In this document: positions 40,713 to 47,954 of the stretch, one piece after another | Numbering within the stretch: position 1 is the first letter of the stretch | Layout of the letters: each line of letters starts with the position of its first letter | IMG/VR virus record: IMGVR_UViG_3300042568_000467 | Span: 27,439-91,438 of that record | Source: a virus | Direction: 5' to 3' (one strand) | Length of the DNA stretch: 64,000 bases | Program-made: the position numbers and the translations under genes | Notes under the pieces: generated by a model | The model's input: the letters and a program-made list of their open reading frames with translations, nothing else | What the model was told of the DNA's origin: nothing | The model's database searches: none

Positions 40713-41309
40713 TTACCTTTTATAAAAGAATATGGGAATTAGATATTTGTTCCCAGAGGTTGTTTCTGCAGGTTCATGAAATGTGTCCTTTGACTCAAAA
40801 ACAACAACGCTTCCAGCTTCTGGCTTAATGGATATATTGAAATCTGGAAAGTTTATCTCTCCGCCTTCATAGTCGTCATTTAAATAGACAACCATTGAAA
40901 CCGTTAGTGGATCTTGGTCATCATCATATGAGTCTATGTGGGATCCCATATATGCGCCAACATCATACTTCTTAATAAAAAAGGTTGTGGGCAAATATCC
41001 TGGCTCAATACCTGTATCTTTGCAAAAAGACTCTTCGATATTTATAACTTTGTAAGCTAACATAGAGCAAAGCTTTGAGTTTATTTTATCTCCGACTGTT
41101 TGATTTTTAAAATTGTTAAGTCGACATTCCTTTTGTTTACCAAAAACATCATTGGTTCCAGAAGAAGATCTCCACTCTTGCCATGGACCTATTTGTGGAA
41201 CATAAGATGGATCTAGATCAGACTCCTCTAGTTCTTTTAAAAATAGACCTGGATCCTCAATAACATTTCTGTAGTAATGCACCTTAGGATGAAGAACTTC
41301 TTTAATCAT
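40713..41309 (-). CDS. 2OG-Fe(II) oxygenase, prolyl 4-hydroxylase-like
   Basis: KY..G.YMGSHID, VVYLNDDYEGGEI.F, KPEAGS, FHEP, GNKY. Confidence 0.9.
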   Translation of the reverse strand: MIKEVLHPKVHYYRNVIEDPGLFLKELEESDLDPSYVPQIGPWQEWRSSSGTNDVFGKQKECRLNNFKNQTVGDKINSKLCSMLAYKVINIEESFCKDTGIEPGYLPTTFFIKKYDVGAYMGSHIDSYDDDQDPLTVSMVVYLNDDYEGGEINFPDFNISIKPEAGSVVVFESKDTFHEPAETTSGNKYLIPIFFYKR

Positions 41310-42009
41310 ATTTTGCCTTATATTGTAAAGGAGTTCCTTCTTCTTTAGCCTTAGCCCATTCCTTGTAAGTTTCTTCTTGCTCGGCTCTTGTTTGCTTCAA
41401 TTCAGCTTCCCACTCCGCTATTTGTTCTGGAGTGTATACAGCATCAGCATTATCCCAAAAAGATCCTACTGTATATCTTTCTGCATTCTTAACAGTTGAC
41501 ACTTCGTGCTCGTTGCCATAACCACCTTTAAAGAATGCTAGTCTTCCTGGCTTTGGTTTAATGACTATGTCATGATGCTTAAAGTTTAAATCTCCACCTT
41601 CAAAATTATCATTTAAATATAGGAATCCAGCATATTTACTTTTATAAAATGCAGAGGGAGTTCCATCTTCATGAGTATTGTCTGAATGAAAACTTGCAAA
41701 CGCACCGACTACCCACTTTTGTGCATGATAACTAACTTCAGATAGCTCTCTACCAAAACATTCTTCTCCAGCCTTTTTAATTTTTTCTTTCAGTTGTGAA
41801 AAATAATCTCTTGGTAAGCCAAATAACAATAGGTTGTCATCGTGTGGCCAATATCCCATTGCAAAAGATCCGTAGAATGAGATTTGATTCCATTCTAAAA
41901 ATCCTGCATTTACAATTCCATCCAGATATCCAATAATTGCACTACATTCTTCTGGTGTTATTAGATTATCTACAACAAAAACGTCATCCTTTAGCGTTAC
42001 AATTTCCAT
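41302..42009 (-). CDS. 2OG-Fe(II) oxygenase, prolyl 4-hydroxylase-like
   Basis: FHSD, LYLNDNFEGGDL, NEHEV, ERY. Confidence 0.9.
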   Translation of the reverse strand: MEIVTLKDDVFVVDNLITPEECSAIIGYLDGIVNAGFLEWNQISFYGSFAMGYWPHDDNLLLFGLPRDYFSQLKEKIKKAGEECFGRELSEVSYHAQKWVVGAFASFHSDNTHEDGTPSAFYKSKYAGFLYLNDNFEGGDLNFKHHDIVIKPKPGRLAFFKGGYGNEHEVSTVKNAERYTVGSFWDNADAVYTPEQIAEWEAELKQTRAEQEETYKEWAKAKEEGTPLQYKAKYD

Positions 42010-42865
42010 AGCCAGCTTCCTCTTCTCTTTCTAATGCCTCTAATGCATATTGTATATCTTGTTCAGACGGCATAACTCTTACGCCATCTTTAAAAACTAT
42101 ATTGCCTCCGTAAACATCTTCGGCCATTCTTCTTCTCTCCATTTGAGCCCACTTAACTGCTCCATACTTTGATTGATTAGCTAGCCACTCTTCAGACCCT
42201 TCGTATGGGTAAAACATAAAGTTTCTAATTAAATATTTATTTCCCTGGGTTGCTGTTCTCACTCCATGATAGTAAGGCTCTCCTGATGGGAATACCATAA
42301 TGTCCCCTGCTTCTGGTTTGTAGGCTGGAACAAACTCTCCGTCTACATAAAACTCAATTTCTCCACCTTCATAATCATCATTTATATAAACAGTACAAGT
42401 TATAAAAAATTGATTACCAGGCATATCTTTTTCTGTTTGCTTAAAATCAGTATGAAATTGCATAGTTAGATTATTTTTTAAAGTGTCTACATTTGTATGA
42501 TATTTACAAAATGATGAGGATCCTAACTCAGAATCTTTTGGAAGCTCTACATTATACTTTTCAATATAATGATCTAGTGCTACATTGTATGCGTCAAAAA
42601 CTGTTTCGGCAGCCCAGTATTCGTTATCAAATGTTTCATTTTTTCCAAGCTGGTCTTGGACAGCATCTTTATGCTTTGTACTTGAGTATAAGCCAAATGC
42701 ACTCCATTGATACCACGGATTAAAATAATGTTCTCCAGAGTCTTTATCTTCCTCCGTTAAACCTTCTGTTGATTTTATAATTTCAAAGATCTTTTTATGA
42801 TCTGGTAGCAACCCTTTGTATACTTCAATTTTAGGGTATAACGTTTTTGATACTATATCACTCAT
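41984..42865 (-). CDS. 2OG-Fe(II) oxygenase, prolyl 4-hydroxylase-like
   Basis: FHTD, VYINDDYEGGEI, YYHGV, GNKY. Confidence 0.9.
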   Translation of the reverse strand: MSDIVSKTLYPKIEVYKGLLPDHKKIFEIIKSTEGLTEEDKDSGEHYFNPWYQWSAFGLYSSTKHKDAVQDQLGKNETFDNEYWAAETVFDAYNVALDHYIEKYNVELPKDSELGSSSFCKYHTNVDTLKNNLTMQFHTDFKQTEKDMPGNQFFITCTVYINDDYEGGEIEFYVDGEFVPAYKPEAGDIMVFPSGEPYYHGVRTATQGNKYLIRNFMFYPYEGSEEWLANQSKYGAVKWAQMERRRMAEDVYGGNIVFKDGVRVMPSEQDIQYALEALEREEEAGYGNCNAKG

Positions 42866-43533
42866 TCTGAATCCTTATCTAACTTAGAGATTGTCCAAAA
42901 CCAAGGCGATGTGTATCTGGTACCTGCTGTAATTACATCGACACCATGAATATAATTCAAGTCTCCAGGGAAAAAATATGCTGCTTTTCTTTTAGGTCTT
43001 ATTGCTACATCCTGTTTTGGAAAATGCAGTCTTCCGCCTTCATAATCTTCGTTTAAATAAAATATTGTTCCAATGTCATACCACGGGAAGTTTCCAGGCT
43101 TTCCAGCATCTGGACCTTCATGTAACTCTTTATCTGCATGTGGCCACTGCATAGACCCTACTGGCCATCTGACCAAGCATGGTCCTGTTGGATAAACCTC
43201 TACATTAAAATGCTTTTCGATAACTGGCTTTAGCCTTTGGATAATCTGCTCTAGCATTACTGACACTTCGGGATTTCCTTTATCTAAAGAAGCTCTTGTG
43301 GCGACACGATCTCTCCATACGTCGTGCTGATAAATTACTGTTCCGTTTTCATTAACCACATCTTGTCCACCGTCCCAAATAGTGTTACCCTTTACATAAC
43401 TTAACAGAAATTCACACTCTTCTTCTGTAAGAAAGTTTTCCACCTCAACAATATTTTCTTTTCCTGCTCCAAAGTATCCTGAGGGTGTAATTGAGGTTCT
43501 ATGTGTTCTTAAATCAGATTCATTAACGTGCAT
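42862..43533 (-). CDS. 2OG-Fe(II) oxygenase, prolyl 4-hydroxylase-like
   Basis: PHAD, FYLNEDYEGGRL, YIHGV, GTRY. Confidence 0.9.
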   Translation of the reverse strand: MHVNESDLRTHRTSITPSGYFGAGKENIVEVENFLTEEECEFLLSYVKGNTIWDGGQDVVNENGTVIYQHDVWRDRVATRASLDKGNPEVSVMLEQIIQRLKPVIEKHFNVEVYPTGPCLVRWPVGSMQWPHADKELHEGPDAGKPGNFPWYDIGTIFYLNEDYEGGRLHFPKQDVAIRPKRKAAYFFPGDLNYIHGVDVITAGTRYTSPWFWTISKLDKDSE

Positions 43534-43550
43534 TTTTTCTACCTATCATC

Positions 43551-44279
43551 TTATTCATATTTCTTGGGGACCCAAGTTTTTTGTTTGTAAACTCCAAATT
43601 TTTCATTTCCAAGCTCGTCTTGCCTGTAAATTTTTGTATGAGCTTCATGCTTTTCAACCATTTCTTCTTGTGTAAAAAGGTTAACTTCAGACGTCCATTC
43701 TTCTCTTTTATAAGGAAAAATTTGAGCGTAAGGAGTTCCTTTTTTAATAATACCTTGAAAAGTATTCTTTATAAAAAATGGCATAAGTCCTGGTGGCCCA
43801 TACCTATCACTGTCAATTATACCGCTTGTAGTCAAAAAAGGCAGCTCAAAATGATTTATCGGATGTGTTATTAAAGCGCTATACCCCTCTGGCAAAGTAA
43901 ATCCCCAGTTTGGATACCAATGATATGACTGCTTATAGTATCCATCTGGATAATAAAACTCACCCATATGAGGTCTAGAGTCACAAAATCCTTCAAACCC
44001 CTTTTCTGGTTGAATATAAGTAACTTCATTATAGCTGGAAACAGCAACATCGCATGGAGTTGTTAACATATATCCAGATGAAAATACATCAAGTAGCGCT
44101 GGGCACGATTTAAATCCAGGGCCTTTTTTGTTTTTAGGTGGAAAATCTATAACCTTATTATCTTTGTCTGTCCAGTATTTACTGGCATTTAAAAACCAAT
44201 TTGGGGTTGTTTTTTTTGCAGGAGACGGAGCGGTGTCCTTGTTATTATAAACTCTATTTGAATTAAAAACAATTTTCAT
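43551..44279 (-). CDS. hypothetical protein, DUF6065-related phage family
   Basis: PNWF, FKSCPALLD..SSGY, GYSALITHP, SGIIDSD, IKKGTPYAQIFP; loosely parallels motifs of 44276..44992. Confidence 0.55.
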   Translation of the reverse strand: MKIVFNSNRVYNNKDTAPSPAKKTTPNWFLNASKYWTDKDNKVIDFPPKNKKGPGFKSCPALLDVFSSGYMLTTPCDVAVSSYNEVTYIQPEKGFEGFCDSRPHMGEFYYPDGYYKQSYHWYPNWGFTLPEGYSALITHPINHFELPFLTTSGIIDSDRYGPPGLMPFFIKNTFQGIIKKGTPYAQIFPYKREEWTSEVNLFTQEEMVEKHEAHTKIYRQDELGNEKFGVYKQKTWVPKKYE

Positions 44280-44992
44280 TTTGTTAAATCTTTAACTCCA
44301 AGCTTGATCGATTTAACTTCATGTTCCCCTAAATGGTTTCCCATGTAGTCTACAGCATCTCTATAGTAATCAGTCCATGTTCCTTCAGAATTTGCTTTTT
44401 CTGCTGCTTTCATGGCACCCTCCATTGTAAGCGGTATATCTCTTTTAATTAAAGGAGCATTTCTTTCTTCATCTAAATTAACTGTAGAATTATTTAAGTC
44501 TGTAAGAGATATTGGCATAATTGCAATAAATGGTTCATTCGCTTTTATTGTAATAGGGACAAAAGGTCTGGTAATTTTCCAGGCTACTGGTAGTGGGCCT
44601 TCAAAAAAAGATGTACTTAATATACTAGTAACCGCACTTGCCCCATCTGTAAAACTATTTGGAACTGGAAAGGAAAGAAGGCTATAGTTTTTATCAGTGA
44701 CAAAACGTAGGTTAGTTTTAAAATTAATTGTTGCGTGTCCCCTACCCGTTTCACAATATTTTTCTCCCTGAAGGACTTTAACGTTATCTGGATAAGTACT
44801 AGTAATTCCATCCCACATAAATGTTATATCTTCAGGGAAAGATAGCCCCCAGCCAACCTGGTTACTTAAAGTTAAAGGGAAACATCTATATGCATGCTTA
44901 TGGGTAGTTTCGTCCATCCAATTTCTTTTTGCAGAAAGTGGAACTATGTTTGCAGAAAAATCTGAAACTTTATAAGCATTTAAATTAATCAA
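44276..44992 (-). CDS. DUF6065-like protein
   Basis: RNWMD.T...AYRCFPL..SNQVGW, PVPN, WKITRP, EPFIAIMP. Confidence 0.7.
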   Translation of the reverse strand: MINLNAYKVSDFSANIVPLSAKRNWMDETTHKHAYRCFPLTLSNQVGWGLSFPEDITFMWDGITSTYPDNVKVLQGEKYCETGRGHATINFKTNLRFVTDKNYSLLSFPVPNSFTDGASAVTSILSTSFFEGPLPVAWKITRPFVPITIKANEPFIAIMPISLTDLNNSTVNLDEERNAPLIKRDIPLTMEGAMKAAEKANSEGTWTDYYRDAVDYMGNHLGEHEVKSIKLGVKDLTK

Positions 44993-45740
44993 CTGATTTC
45001 TCTTCCATTAATTGTTCTGCTGGCTTAAACTTTTTCCCTTCAGTAATATGATTATATTCATAGCTAGCTTCAATTTCTCTGTACAGTGGTGTATGTGGAG
45101 CCTCTTGATAATCTAGCATGGTTACAATTGCATATTTTGTTCCTGATGTTACTGGCATTGCAGCATGAGAATATATAAAGGAAGATGGGAAAAGATAAAG
45201 GTCTCCAGCTCTTGGCTTTACCTTAACGCCAAGCTTGTCAAAAAATAACTCTCCTCCTTCGTAATCGTCGTTTATGTATCCAACTGAAGATAAAACGCAA
45301 ACGTAGGAGTACCCGTGATCTGAGTGAACATTAAAGTGTTGATTTTTACCATACTTAATAAAATTAAAAGCTTCCCAATAATTCAATGGTGGAATTTGAA
45401 ACATATTCATGTAGTCATAAACTGCTGAAAGTTGAGCAGCCTTTGACTCTCTCCAAATACTGCGTAGCTCAAATTCTTCTTCTGTGAAGTCTTCTGGCTC
45501 GACGTGTGTTCCGTTACCAAGCATTAAGGATCCGCCTTGGTTTTCTTTAATCTTGAAATCCCAAGCATCTCTATAATCTTTATTTAGGGTGTCGTATCCA
45601 GTCTGAGCAAGGTTCCAGTGTTTCTTGCCTTGTGTTTTAGAAAGAACAGATTCTAGTCTAGTGTCTAAATTATATTCTTTTTTAAATACATCTCTATATA
45701 CAATAATTCCTGGATAAATTGTTTCTGCATTTGGTAGCAT
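44985..45740 (-). CDS. 2OG-Fe(II) oxygenase, prolyl 4-hydroxylase-like
   Basis: VHSDHG, GYINDDYEGGEL, YSHAAMPV.SGTKY. Confidence 0.9.
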   Translation of the reverse strand: MLPNAETIYPGIIVYRDVFKKEYNLDTRLESVLSKTQGKKHWNLAQTGYDTLNKDYRDAWDFKIKENQGGSLMLGNGTHVEPEDFTEEEFELRSIWRESKAAQLSAVYDYMNMFQIPPLNYWEAFNFIKYGKNQHFNVHSDHGYSYVCVLSSVGYINDDYEGGELFFDKLGVKVKPRAGDLYLFPSSFIYSHAAMPVTSGTKYAIVTMLDYQEAPHTPLYREIEASYEYNHITEGKKFKPAEQLMEEKSVD

Positions 45741-46367
45741 TTAATTTGACTCCTTCTTATGCTTTTTGTCAATATAGTCATCATATTCTTTTGAATGGGC
45801 ATCATCGTTATAGTCTAACATGGTGACAAAAGAATACTTGGTTCCAGAATTTACTGGAAGAGCTATGTGAGAATAAATAAATGAAGATGGAAATATAATT
45901 AAATCACCAGCTTTAGGCTCTATGTGTAAATCAAATTTAGGGAAAAACAATCCTCCGCCAGTATAGTTATCATTAGGATATCCTACCAAAGAAACGGCGG
46001 ATTTGTATGACCAACCGTCGTCTGAATGCTCCTTAAAATATTGTCCTTTTCCATACTTTACAACATTTGTCCATTCCCAAAAATCCATTCTAATACTATA
46101 CATTTCGCAGTAATCTAGCACGGCTTCTTTTTGACAATTATATATGTCATTATATATATCTATATATTCTGGTAAATTATACATCTTGAGATCTTGGCAA
46201 TCTCTATACTCTAGATCCTGATCTTCTAAGCATACGGTAGCTGTATTCCATTTTAAAACACCAGAATCTACCTTATCTTCAATTCTTTGAATTAAGTTTA
46301 AATCTTCTGGGAAAGAATTTGGGTATTTCCATATGCCAGGATATAGTTGTTGTTTATTATATATCAT
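45741..46367 (-). CDS. 2OG-Fe(II) oxygenase, prolyl 4-hydroxylase-like (close paralog of 44985..45740)
   Basis: EHSDDG, GYPNDNYTGG, FPSSFIYSHIALPV.SGTKY. Confidence 0.9.
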   Translation of the reverse strand: MIYNKQQLYPGIWKYPNSFPEDLNLIQRIEDKVDSGVLKWNTATVCLEDQDLEYRDCQDLKMYNLPEYIDIYNDIYNCQKEAVLDYCEMYSIRMDFWEWTNVVKYGKGQYFKEHSDDGWSYKSAVSLVGYPNDNYTGGGLFFPKFDLHIEPKAGDLIIFPSSFIYSHIALPVNSGTKYSFVTMLDYNDDAHSKEYDDYIDKKHKKESN

Positions 46368-46373
46368 AAATAC

Positions 46374-46402
46374 ATAATATCATATTTAAAAAACCTAGTC
46401 AA
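46374..46402 (-). promoter_or_regulatory. leaderless promoter for oxygenase cluster
   Basis: TTGACT(46397-46402)-17-TATTAT(46374-46379)-6 nt-ATG(46367); extended TGn. Confidence 0.65.
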
Positions 46403-47954
46403 TAGTATCTTGTAGGGTTTTACATCCGTTGTAGGCTAGCATTGACTCTGCAATTAATAGCCCCCAAGGTTCTCTATAAATCAAATACACCTTGGTGTCC
46501 TTTTTAACAATTTCAACCTTTTCAACATCTATAAATTCTAATTCATTGTCTTTATAGGATACAATTTGATCGCCTTGTTTTAATTTAGAGCTTGTAATAA
46601 ATTTGTATTTATTTGCTCTTTTTATTAAAATCTGTTCTTGTGTTGATAAATCATACTTTTCTTCATCATTTATTCTAACAATTGAAGCGTAGTCTTGTTC
46701 ATTAATATCAAAGACTGTTGACTCAATGTAAGAAACATTTTCTAAAGAATCAGAGTTCCATGCATCTACAAGAGATATGCATTTCTTTGAAACTGAACCA
46801 ATAGTACAGTTTGGATCACCTTCTGGAATTTCGTCAAAGACTGCAGTTATAAGAATGTCGCCATTAACAATTTCTTTAGCTTTCTTATATCCGTCTTTTG
46901 TTAAGACGTTAGTGTTTTCTGGAATACAAAATCCTGGAGGACCAAAGAATCTAGGTGGCGAGAAGAATCCTGGAGGACCAAAAAATGTTGGTGGAGCAAA
47001 GAATCTCGGTGGGCTGAAGAACAGCGGCGGGCTGAAGAATCTAGGTGGGGTAAAGAACAGCGGTGGCACAAAGAATCTTGGCGGGGTGAAGAACAGCGGC
47101 GGGCTGAAAAACAGCGGTGGGCTAAAGAATAGTGGTGGCACGAAGAACAGCGGCGGGCTGAAAAACAGCGGCGGGCTGAAAAACAGCGGCGGGCTGAAGA
47201 ATAGTGGTGGGCTGAAAAATAGTGGTGGGGCAAAGAACAGCGGTGGGGCGAAAAATAGTGGTGGTGCAAAGAATCCTGGAGGAGAGAAGAATGTTGTAAC
47301 CTGATTAGATGTTGTTGGTGTTGAGTTTCCGTTTGCATTTACGGCAACTACGGTATAAGACTGGGTTGTTCCCATTGTTTCTCTGATATTAATTGTTGTT
47401 GCTGGTGGATTTCCAACAACCTCATATGGAGATGCTAATCCTCCTGGTTGAGCAGAGCTGTCTGAAGAAGTAATTATATACTTAGTTAAAGGCTTGCCTC
47501 CAGAAGTTGAAGCAGACCATGAAACAGTGTCTTGTCCTCTTAAATCGGTTGTGCTATGTCCTGGACCAGTTGTATTAGATGTTGAAGTTACTGTTGCTGG
47601 AGCAGCTGGAACTGTAGTAAATGTAACAGAAGATGAAGCAGCTGATGCTTCTGACTGACCATTAGCATTTGTTGCTTTTACTGTAGCTGTACCAACAGCT
47701 CCTTGAGGAATACCAATAACCGTAATAGGCGAAGATGTTCCAATTTCTGAAAATGATCCTTGTGCGCCACAATTTACAACAACTGTATAGCTTATAATTG
47801 GTAACTGATCTGGTGGATAATCAAAAGATACTACTGCTGCTGCATTATTAAATGGGCGATTCGTTCCAACATCTGTTAGAGTTACATTGATAGGTGGTAC
47901 TGGTAATTCAAAATCACCAGATAATTGAGCTCTTCTACCAACTTTTTTTGCCAT
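46395..47954 (-). CDS. FN3x2 - (FFxPPy)20 repeat - C-terminal Hint (intein-like) domain protein
   Basis: Two FN3-like units; 20 tandem hexapeptides; then CIPENTNVLTKDGYKKAKEIVNGD (Hint block A) ... VYLIYREPWGLLIAESMLAYN (blocks F/G). Confidence 0.85.
   Translation of the reverse strand: MAKKVGRRAQLSGDFELPVPPINVTLTDVGTNRPFNNAAAVVSFDYPPDQLPIISYTVVVNCGAQGSFSEIGTSSPITVIGIPQGAVGTATVKATNANGQSEASAASSSVTFTTVPAAPATVTSTSNTTGPGHSTTDLRGQDTVSWSASTSGGKPLTKYIITSSDSSAQPGGLASPYEVVGNPPATTINIRETMGTTQSYTVVAVNANGNSTPTTSNQVTTFFSPPGFFAPPLFFAPPLFFAPPLFFSPPLFFSPPLFFSPPLFFSPPLFFVPPLFFSPPLFFSPPLFFTPPRFFVPPLFFTPPRFFSPPLFFSPPRFFAPPTFFGPPGFFSPPRFFGPPGFCIPENTNVLTKDGYKKAKEIVNGDILITAVFDEIPEGDPNCTIGSVSKKCISLVDAWNSDSLENVSYIESTVFDINEQDYASIVRINDEEKYDLSTQEQILIKRANKYKFITSSKLKQGDQIVSYKDNELEFIDVEKVEIVKKDTKVYLIYREPWGLLIAESMLAYNGCKTLQDTID
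46932..47291 (-). repeat. 20 x 18-bp coding tandem repeat (FFxPPy)
   Basis: Units FFSPPG, FFAPPL, FFSPPL, FFVPPL, FFTPPR, FFSPPR, FFAPPT, FFGPPG; synonymous variation between copies. Confidence 0.97.

Follow-up and report, generated by a model that had tools for sequence, protein, structure and literature searches.

Hint domains are known from inteins, from bacterial BIL domains and from autoprocessing modules of the Hedgehog type. A-type BIL domains are defined by a Hint fold with an N-terminal Cys, a C-terminal Asn and no nucleophile at the +1 position. They reportedly cleave at either end and can also ligate by aminolysis. BUBL BIL domains conjugate the ubiquitin-like domains that flank them to lysines, and the Hint domain of Hedgehog links cholesterol to the C-terminus of the N-terminal part of the protein. 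Phage fibres are known to carry C-terminal Peptidase S74 chaperones, e.g. in endosialidase, which are needed transiently and remove themselves autocatalytically.

The Hint domain described here is encoded by an uncultured phage. The window analysed comprises 64,000 nt of IMG/VR record IMGVR_UViG_3300042568_000467 (positions 27,439-91,438), and the domain forms part of a 519-aa protein consisting, in this order, of a conserved leader, two FN3 domains, the repeat (FFxPPx)20, the Hint domain and a 10-aa tail. The features of the gene, with their basis in brackets, are as follows:

46395..47954, minus strand: whole gene, 519 aa (open reading frame list and translation)
47292..47954, minus strand: N-terminal part, aa 1-221, consisting of the leader MAKKVGRRAQLSGDFELPVPP and then two FN3-like domains (Pfam and PDB matches)
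46929..47291, minus strand: repeat, aa 222-342, 20 FFxPPx hexapeptides and one Phe (codon-by-codon unit list)
46428..46928, minus strand: Hint domain, aa 343-509, 167 aa (AF2, Foldseek, VIA, profile alignment)
46926..46928, minus strand: Cys343, position-1 nucleophile, in block A C-I-P-E-N-T-N-V-L-T (superposition and family conservation)
46635..46646, minus strand: block B Ser437-Thr-Gln-Glu440, replacing T-x-x-H (profile alignment)
46428..46433, minus strand: Tyr508-Asn509, C-terminal block G, Y-N and not H-N (superposition)
46398..46427, minus strand: tail GCKTLQDTID ('C-extein'), 10 aa, followed by the stop codon (translation)

The original prediction, which gave the span 46428-46928 with no strand, had placed Cys1 right after ...FFGPPGF and had described a 167-aa domain that ends at Asn and is followed by GCKTLQDTID. 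The translation agrees with this. The span runs exactly from Cys1 to Asn on the minus strand, Phe342 at the end of the repeat occupies position -1 relative to the Hint domain, and the codon of Asn509 (46428-46430) is followed by a tail with Gly510 at +1 and Cys511 at +2. The FN3 part matched PDB FN3 chain 1uey (E 4e-5), and Pfam fn3 at E 0.0024, which is under the curated cutoff. Leader and FN3 domains are kept in relatives, and the number of FFxPPx units differs among them, ranging between about 20 and over 30. The same layout is kept in 15 related IMG/VR loci (44-89% identity). Repeat and Hint domain are in one frame in all 14 related loci in which the part of the gene preceding the domain is covered; locus L015 holds only the last 80 residues of the Hint domain and therefore falls outside these 14. 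A PHROGs search with the 519-aa protein matched no family, and among cultured-phage records no match was found by tblastn of the whole protein or by megablast of 12 kb.

As judged from its predicted structure, the C-terminal 167 aa is a genuine Hint domain. The AlphaFold (AF2) model has a pLDDT of 93 and a pTM of 0.88; this fold, together with the layout conserved in 15 loci, indicates that the open reading frame is no chance frame. All top Foldseek matches were Hint domains, namely BIL2 (6tmm/6y75), Hedgehog (1at0), inteins and the BIL domain 2lwy. Superposition with VIA returned 84 chains with Z of at least 8, the top Z of 15.8 being obtained with 6y75_B (Tetrahymena BIL2; rmsd 2.2 Å over 138 aa), while 2lwy of C. 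thermocellum and a RecA mini-intein both gave Z 15.2. The fold has a nucleophile at its first residue: model residue 8 (Cys343) superposes on intein residue 1, and model residue 174 (Asn509) on the last residue of the Mtu RecA mini-intein. A profile built from 51 relatives had 2lwy as its best PDB match (E 4e-8) and also matched the Pho RadA intein (2e-6). Structures of mini-inteins and BIL domains cover the whole 167 aa, with an insert of ~35 aa containing Cys383 and Cys392 as the sole extra. Structure comparison found no endonuclease domain in these 167 aa, as had been expected from the sequence.

Of the searches against Hint, PT-HINT and BIL families proposed in the original prediction, those by structure gave the Hint fold, and those with curated HMMs gave scores under the thresholds. 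It scored 13.9 bits against Pfam Intein_splicing (threshold 35.8), 11.8 bits against Pfam PT-HINT (27.7) and 17.6 bits against TIGR01445 (24.5). Pfam PF01079 (Hedgehog Hint) was absent among matches at E <= 10, and Pfam Hint_2 (PF13403, B-type BIL) gave no match to the window domain. Among 51 relatives, 12 matched Intein_splicing at E <= 0.01, 3 matched PT-HINT and 1 matched Hint_2 (E 0.003).

On sequence comparison, the window domain belongs to a large family of C-terminal Hint domains restricted to viruses, within which it forms a derived branch. The family has 70 representatives in a set of 1.84 billion proteins and occurs at hundreds of IMG/VR loci. Prokaryote genomes of 185,579 species yielded only 1 match, on a MAG contig. 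The family domains are always found at the extreme C-terminus and always after short tandem repeats; these are rich in aromatic residues, Pro or Gly and are of many kinds, e.g. GAFGAF, HYGGF, NPPPYD and PVIIAE. The N-terminal partners are of the binding type (FN3; PASTA in 8 of 51 members), and the tail measures 1-34 aa, most commonly 1 aa. Residues were counted in 126 distinct complete family domains. Position 1 is Cys (70) or Ser (56) and never another residue, and the last residue is Asn (70), Asp (53) or Gln (3), the combinations Cys-Asn and Ser-Asp occurring 67 and 53 times. The Thr position of block B holds Ser (108) or Thr (17), its His position His (84), Gln (30) or Glu (12), and the penultimate position His (77), Phe (25) or Tyr (23). 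The +1 residue is not conserved (Lys 49, Ser 25, Gly 12, Thr 10, Arg 9); in some relatives of the Ser1 type it is Ser or Thr. The window domain had been called non-canonical, and its residues are as stated then; it is, however, no isolated oddity but represents the derived state of one clade. Elsewhere in this large phage family, members keep S-x-x-H and H-N. The natural His-Gln-Glu series in block B and the pairing of Cys/Asn versus Ser/Asp form a set of variants for the study of Hint catalysis, which may aid protein-engineering tools that require C-terminal thioesters.

The family appears to be undescribed. The window domain passed no curated model, and no description of the family was found in literature on Hint and BIL domains in phages, autoproteolytic tail fibres, jumbo-phage fibre inteins or cyanophage oxygenases. 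Reports on phiCbK, CBB and the Erwinia jumbo family, and a jumbo-phage review, discuss terminase or RNR inteins only.

In the profile alignment, Ser437 and Glu440 fall on Thr and His, respectively, of the Pho RadA intein motif T-P-S-H, in line with the replacement of the block-B His that had been read from LSTQEQ. The penultimate Tyr and the Gly at +1 were likewise found in the translation. The block-B T-x-x-H, the C-terminal His-Asn and the Cys, Ser or Thr at +1 of canonical inteins are thus all absent, and where two exteins would be required, only the 10-aa tail lies downstream. In the relatives L003-L006 a stop codon follows GCKTLA or GCKTLN, which leaves a tail of 6 aa. With Gly at +1 and a tail dispensable at 6-10 aa, canonical splicing is not expected, as the earlier assignment to a non-splicing type implied. 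That the domain is an ordinary selfish mini-intein, which would rejoin tail and repeat by splicing, is scarcely credible. The Hint fold with Cys1 and terminal Asn, and the Ser or Thr at +1 of some Ser1-type relatives, would suit such an element, but the +1 residue is Gly here and varies in the family, the 'C-extein' of 1-34 aa is shortened by stop codons in close relatives, and a homing endonuclease is absent. A parasite at the end of a gene could moreover be removed by a single nonsense mutation, yet the 14 informative loci all keep repeat and Hint domain in frame. Classification as a canonical intein was rejected on the Gly at +1 and the dispensable tail. What the domain does have is the combination typical of A-type BIL domains: Hint fold, N-terminal Cys, C-terminal Asn and no nucleophile at +1.

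Three positions are replaced in the clade of the window domain: the block-B His by Glu440, the penultimate His by Tyr508 and the Asp of a family-conserved E-P-Y-D motif by Gly498. Equating this Asp with the block-F Asp of inteins was considered and dropped, as the motif register places it closer to the block-F His position; F:4 is variable in the family. As three helper positions are replaced, catalysis could be slow, conditional or lost. The Hint fold might even be catalytically dead and retained on the mature protein as a structural, folding or docking domain, for which these three replacements and the scores below the thresholds of the curated intein models could be cited. Such a loss of function is nonetheless quite improbable, as Cys1 is among just 6 invariant columns of 132 in 20 distinct Glu-type domains, the first residue is Cys or Ser throughout the family and changes together with the Asn or Asp that closes the domain, and the block-B His changes to Gln or Glu only, not to random residues. 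The earlier statement that the domain could equally be weak or inactive was, given the invariance of Cys1, too pessimistic. The terminal Asn is lost in some Glu-type relatives, with Gly in P0008, Ser in P0011 and His in P0023 and P0050, and P0013 ends in C-Y-G-S-Y with Gly where the Asn would be. As the Asn is missing in these few relatives, the C-terminal step is not universal. The invariant Cys could in principle have a role other than the acyl shift.

Taking residues and predicted fold together, the Hint domain seems likely to be a self-removing, BIL-like cap that cuts rather than splices. Its putative chemistry combines an acyl shift with resolution of a thioester that needs no +1 nucleophile. 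Cys343 would attack the carbonyl of Phe342, and the resulting N-to-S acyl shift would leave a thioester at the end of (FFxPPx)20; upon its resolution the Hint domain would depart. The mature protein would then be FN3-FN3-repeat ending at Phe342. Asn509 may in addition cyclise and clip the 10-aa tail, a step that looks secondary. The cap is presumed to sit on a virion appendage protein. The analysis shows the fold, where the catalytic ends lie, conservation across the family and the gene neighbourhood; we infer that cleavage occurs, at what stage it does so, and a role of the cap in maturation or assembly. If the cap cuts itself off, or ligates, this would constitute a new maturation route for phage appendages. 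The likeness of such a cap to the Peptidase S74 chaperones would be functional only, since the chaperones have an unrelated fold and an unrelated chemistry, based on a Ser-Lys dyad in place of a Hint thioester.

The closest structures are BIL domains, domains of the Hedgehog type and mini-inteins, so that the likeness to BIL- and Hedgehog-type Hints proposed from the sequence holds. With the A-type BIL domain of C. thermocellum (2LWY; rmsd 2.0 Å over 132 aa at the Z given above) the window domain shares the mini Hint fold, the N-terminal Cys, the C-terminal Asn, the lack of Cys, Ser or Thr at +1 and its occurrence in a variable, non-housekeeping protein of the surface type. Unlike A-type BIL domains, the family is restricted to phages, lies at the extreme C-terminus after a short tandem repeat with a 1-34 aa tail behind it, and is linked to hydroxylase or DUF6065-like genes; in the window clade, moreover, Glu and Tyr take the place of the block-B His and the penultimate His, and the window domain does not reach the PT-HINT threshold. 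With Hedgehog/Hog (1AT0; Z 14.5-14.7 in VIA) it shares the fold and, putatively, the arrangement in which a functional N-terminal part is followed by a C-terminal Hint domain that removes itself via a Cys thioester. The window domain, however, lacks a sterol-recognition region and a PF01079 match, and whereas Hedgehog has T-x-x-H and no terminal Asn, the window family keeps Asn, Asp or Gln. Membership of the Hedgehog group was rejected, as only 10 aa follow the Hint domain and no adduct-recognition region is present.

BIL2 of the Tetrahymena thermophila BUBL1 locus (6Y75/6TMM) is the top match (Foldseek E 2e-6) and shares Cys1 and the terminal Asn, with an identity to the window domain of only 15-17%. 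It raises the possibility of thioester transfer, in which a specific nucleophile attacks the Cys343 thioester and the C-terminus of the repeat becomes covalently linked to it. Candidate nucleophiles are a cell-wall amine, a lysine or the N-terminus of a second virion protein, or a hydroxyl introduced by one of the neighbouring oxygenases. Such a transfer is rather unlikely, though several features would fit it: besides the match with BUBL BIL2 (Z 15.8), Hint domains in this family are always paired with binding-type N-terminal domains, modifying enzymes are encoded alongside, and in the Glu-type branch the terminal Asn is less well conserved than Cys1, which fits a need for the N-terminal thioester alone. 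The match with BIL2 is, however, tied with ordinary mini-inteins within about 1 Z unit, and the N-extein here is a Phe/Pro repeat, whereas BUBL BIL domains flank ubiquitin-like domains. Acceptors can be named as candidates only, the region for adduct recognition that follows the Hint domain in Hedgehog is lacking, and the near-universal terminal Asn, Asp or Gln would not be needed for transfer.

Homologous C-terminal Hint domains are present in cultured phages, namely in gp110 of Erwinia jumbo phage pEa_SNUABM_2, in Yersinia phage fHe-Yen9-02, in Dickeya phages and in Phage NCTB (25-30% identity, E 1e-8 to a family member). These proteins are annotated as virion structural protein, as tail fibre or as 'contains intein domain'. 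They share the short tail after H-N, but in pEa_SNUABM_2 gp110 ('virion structural protein') the Hint domain follows collagen-like G-X-Y repeats and further sequence, and it ends in LVHN|T, a canonical H-N followed by Thr. No oxygenase is annotated beside the cultured-phage homologue, and no discussion of its Hint domain was found in the literature. The collagen-like repeats also bear on an RiPP-like reading, in which the Hint thioester releases or macrocyclises FFxPPx peptides to antamanide-like products. Head-to-tail closure by a thioester is possible in principle, but spacers and protease sites are absent from the repeat, a 121-aa tract would offer only one thioester, two folded FN3 domains are joined to the repeat in a protein of a virion module, and unrelated repeat chemistries at the same position across the family argue against cyclisation. 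This reading is very improbable, and a role as RiPP or macrocycle precursor was rejected on the diverse repeat chemistries and the fusion to folded FN3 domains in the virion module.

The gene lies in a virion module, with fibre and decoration proteins, portal, protease and capsid, and has the following genes beside it:

45741-46367, minus strand: 2OG-Fe(II) oxygenase, directly downstream (Pfam PF13640, E 7e-11)
44985-45740, minus strand: 2OG-Fe(II) oxygenase, second of the directly downstream pair (Pfam PF13640, E 1.5e-12)
44276-44992, minus strand: DUF6065-type gene, the other conserved partner type (Pfam DUF6065, E 1.7e-32)
43551-44279, minus strand: second DUF6065-type gene
42862-43533, minus strand: further 2OG-Fe(II) oxygenase paralogue (Pfam PF13640)
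41984-42865, minus strand: further 2OG-Fe(II) oxygenase paralogue (Pfam PF13640)
41302-42009, minus strand: further 2OG-Fe(II) oxygenase paralogue (Pfam PF13640)
40713-41309, minus strand: further 2OG-Fe(II) oxygenase paralogue (Pfam PF13640)

Orthology mapped to distant loci showed that the two oxygenases directly downstream are the paralogues most often retained beside Hint-capped genes elsewhere. Across 40 orthologues, the oxygenase residues H139, D141, H192 and K202 show no or almost no variation. In 49 of 63 clusters the start of an oxygenase or DUF6065-like gene lies on the same strand, at most 1 kb downstream, and the proline fraction of the repeat correlates with the number of oxygenase genes (Spearman 0.78, 49 clusters). 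The adjacent hydroxylases probably act on the Pro-rich stalk; if the cap cuts itself off, or ligates, many 'orphan' phage 2OG oxygenases would gain a concrete and testable protein substrate. The family is a virus-only group of Hint domains that follow hypervariable aromatic/proline repeats in virion-module proteins as their cap, and it travels with dedicated 2OG oxygenases and partner proteins of dUTPase fold. It has also been considered that the Hint domain is a ligation device, which would join the activated C-terminus of a Pro/Phe stalk, once hydroxylated by the neighbouring oxygenases, to a virion protein, to another stalk via a newly formed hydroxyl or to the host cell wall. This is unlikely; it would provide a phage counterpart of lipidation and conjugation of the Hedgehog/BUBL type and of sortase-like anchoring. 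A predicted complex of the Hint domain with the oxygenase encoded at 44985-45740 gave ipSAE values of 0.02 and 0.00, which have no bearing on docking either way. The four further oxygenase paralogues are syntenic in all related loci. The product of the second DUF6065-type gene was modelled with a pLDDT of 90.5 and has a dUTPase/dCTP-deaminase-like fold, with Z 9.7-5.7 for the top 22 matches and a drop thereafter.

The gene carrying the predicted Hint cap lies on a viral contig of 91 kb, estimated to be 85% complete, and codes for a protein consisting of five parts:

46395-47954, minus strand: Hint-capped gene, 519 aa
N-terminus of the protein: short, conserved leader
after the leader: two FN3-like domains (Pfam fn3 E 0.0024, below cutoff; PDB FN3 chain 1uey E 4e-5)
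aa 222-342: repeat of 20 FFxPPx hexapeptides plus one Phe
46428-46928, minus strand: Hint domain, 167 aa, Cys343-Asn509
after Asn509: tail GCKTLQDTID, with Gly510 at +1, then Cys511

All residues named in the original prediction were found in this protein. Block B indeed deviates, reading L-S-T-Q-E-Q where T-x-x-H is expected, the domain ends in Tyr508-Asn509 followed by Gly510 and Cys511, and an endonuclease domain is absent, the sole extra being an insert of ~35 aa with two Cys residues. These form a C-x8-C motif between blocks A and B (aa 383-392, window 46779-46808), which is kept in the window's clade (NCTIGSVSKKC, NCAQGYISTDC, NCAYGVVTVEC), is missing from sister branches, and could be a disulfide or metal site. 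The leader, M-x-K-K-x-G-R-[KR]-x-Q-x-x-x-D-F-x-x-P (aa 1-21, window 47892-47954, minus strand), is common to FN3-type members despite their quite different repeats (proteins P0010, P0011, P0052 and P0069), and may serve in attachment or recognition.

Searched as a single sequence, the domain matched Pfam Intein_splicing with E 0.048, PT-HINT with E 0.29 and the Pho RadA intein with E 0.09, and its TIGR01445 score was under the cutoff of that model; sequence models by themselves thus give feeble support for its identity. A profile of 51 family domains matched the bacterial intein-like (BIL) domain 2lwy with E 4e-8 and the Pho RadA intein with E 2e-6, aligning Ser437 and Glu440 with the Thr and His of T-P-S-H in the latter. 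An AlphaFold model built from the same alignment (pLDDT 93, pTM 0.88) had only Hint domains as top Foldseek matches: Tetrahymena BUBL BIL2, the Hedgehog autoprocessing domain, mini-inteins and a C. thermocellum BIL. VIA-align comparison gave 84 chains at Z >= 8, the best being 6y75_B (Z 15.8, rmsd 2.2 Å, 138 aa), with Z 15.2 to both 2lwy and a RecA mini-intein. Model residues 8-174 superpose on intein residues 1 to last, which puts Cys343 and Asn509 at the two catalytic termini. With relatives included, profile and model make the identity as a Hint domain clear, as had been proposed. BUBL BIL2 (6y75), the nearest structure, is a member of a conjugating system, which would fit a domain passing its Cys343 thioester to a specific acceptor. 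However, its Z is tied with those of ordinary mini-inteins, and such a transfer appears improbable.

The domain belongs to a large family, of which it forms one branch. When 1.84 billion representative proteins were scanned in full with HMMER, 70 relatives came up; in 68 of them the match reaches to a few residues from the protein end, and the two exceptions, a repeat adhesin and a two-Hint protein, were left out. IMG/VR was scanned with the window's domain as well as three sub-alignments, giving 189 loci and 138 distinct ORFs with a Hint domain. Among prokaryotes (185,579 species, each represented by one genome) a single MAG contig matched, and the family looks confined to viruses. The order is constant: a globular N-terminal part (FN3 matches in 3 and PASTA in 8 of the 51 members scanned), a short tandem repeat, and the Hint domain last. 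Repeat types vary widely (FFxPPx, FGFTPFG, PFFPPFF, PHFPPHF, GAFGAF, HYGGFGHGYGGF, NPPPYD, PVIIAE, PGFNEPAF). Several viral contigs (L024/L030, L026/L029, L040/L051, L043/L044, L074/L102, L134/L161) carry two separate Hint-capped repeat genes, ~10 kb apart and with differing N-terminal parts. Unlike the single C-terminal cap, a 728-aa ORF in two IMG/VR loci (L108:2265-4451, L109:2791-4977) contains several tandem Hint domains, with five profile matches and H-N then Cys at the junctions.

Residues at catalytic positions in 126 distinct complete family domains
Position 1: Cys 70, Ser 56
Block-B Thr position: Ser 108, Thr 17, Val 1
Block-B His position: His 84, Gln 30, Glu 12
Penultimate residue: His 77, Phe 25, Tyr 23, Met 1
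Last residue: Asn 70, Asp 53, Gln 3
+1 residue: Lys 49, Ser 25, Gly 12, Thr 10, Arg 9, others

Cys1 occurs together with a terminal Asn in 67 domains, Ser1 with Asp in 53. Since both end residues are always chemically competent and switch together, the counts argue for family-wide selection on chemistry at both domain ends. The tail varies from 1 to 34 aa, one residue being commonest, and in four close relatives (L003-L006) a stop codon cuts it to 6 aa. This stop replaces the counterpart of Gln515 (L003:10541-10543, same place in L004-L006), leaving GCKTLA or GCKTLN with the former frame (PID/SID) still legible beyond. The unconserved +1 residue and dispensable tail suggest that splicing is not the purpose; a selfish intein is unlikely.

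The window's clade is the derived, least canonical branch, having exchanged the block-B His for Glu, the penultimate His for Tyr and the Asp of an E-P-Y-D motif (kept in 97 of 126 members) for Gly498. These replacements make it more likely that catalysis is slow or conditional. Even so, in 20 distinct domains with Glu at the block-B His position Cys1 is among only 6 of 132 columns that are invariant. The terminal Asn is not, giving way to Gly in P0008, Ser in P0011 and His in P0023 and P0050; P0013 also has Gly there. Selection would then act mainly on the N-terminal acyl shift, and a dead structural domain is less probable than the original prediction allowed, and unlikely overall. The most likely reading, and a fairly probable one, is a putative BIL-like self-removing cap: Cys343 would form a thioester with Phe342, the Hint domain would then depart, and Asn509 may cut off the tail. 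RiPP-like cyclisation is unlikely.

By gene content the Hint gene is within the virion module, with PHROGs matches to virion structural, head decoration and tail fibre proteins upstream and portal, protease and capsid on the downstream side. The Hint gene is followed at once, on its own strand, by six PF13640 2OG-Fe(II) oxygenases and two DUF6065-type genes, a set syntenic in all related loci. The distinct Hint proteins formed 65 clusters, 63 of them offering 1.5 kb or more of sequence on the downstream side; in 49 of these 63 an oxygenase or DUF6065-like gene starts within 1 kb downstream on the same strand, and of the nearest such genes, 130 are downstream and 11 upstream. The linkage places the cap in a conserved multi-gene system. 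The higher the proline fraction of a repeat, the more oxygenase genes tend to follow within 8 kb (Spearman 0.78 over 49 clusters; as these are related to one another, the p-value makes the case look stronger than it is); mean 2OG-oxygenase gene numbers (L017-L190) were 0.5 below 10% Pro, 1.8 at 10-25% and 5.0 above 25%. The oxygenases retain the H-x-D...H triad and a Lys. Linkage, correlation and intact residues together support the repeat as a hydroxylase substrate, and the cap may help a hydroxylated appendage to mature or assemble. For most GAFGAF repeats and Pro-free His/Tyr/Gly repeats, the only partners are DUF6065-like. The two DUF6065-type genes (43551-44279 and 44276-44992, minus strand) are distant paralogues (BLASTP E 0.007). 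The modelled product of the former (pLDDT 90.5) has a dUTPase/dCTP-deaminase-like fold, its top 22 structure matches all belonging to that superfamily (Z 9.7-5.7; below 5 afterwards). In the consensus, G-I-I-D-x-D is similar to dUTPase motif 3, and a conserved His is absent.

Cultured phages also have Hint domains: tblastn with a family member gave hits in 48 records of Erwinia jumbo phages and in Dickeya phages, Yersinia phage fHe-Yen9-02 and Phage NCTB, where the proteins are labelled as virion structural or tail fibre protein, or with 'contains intein domain'. Isolates thus do possess virion proteins capped by a Hint domain, and no paper in the literature searched discusses this. In virion structural protein gp110 of Erwinia phage pEa_SNUABM_2 (L191:4014-5456), a collagen-like stretch of G-X-Y repeats, ~90 aa long, and further sequence precede a C-terminal Hint domain that has the canonical end H-N before Thr (LVHN, then T) and a 10-aa tail, which makes it a ready experimental model.
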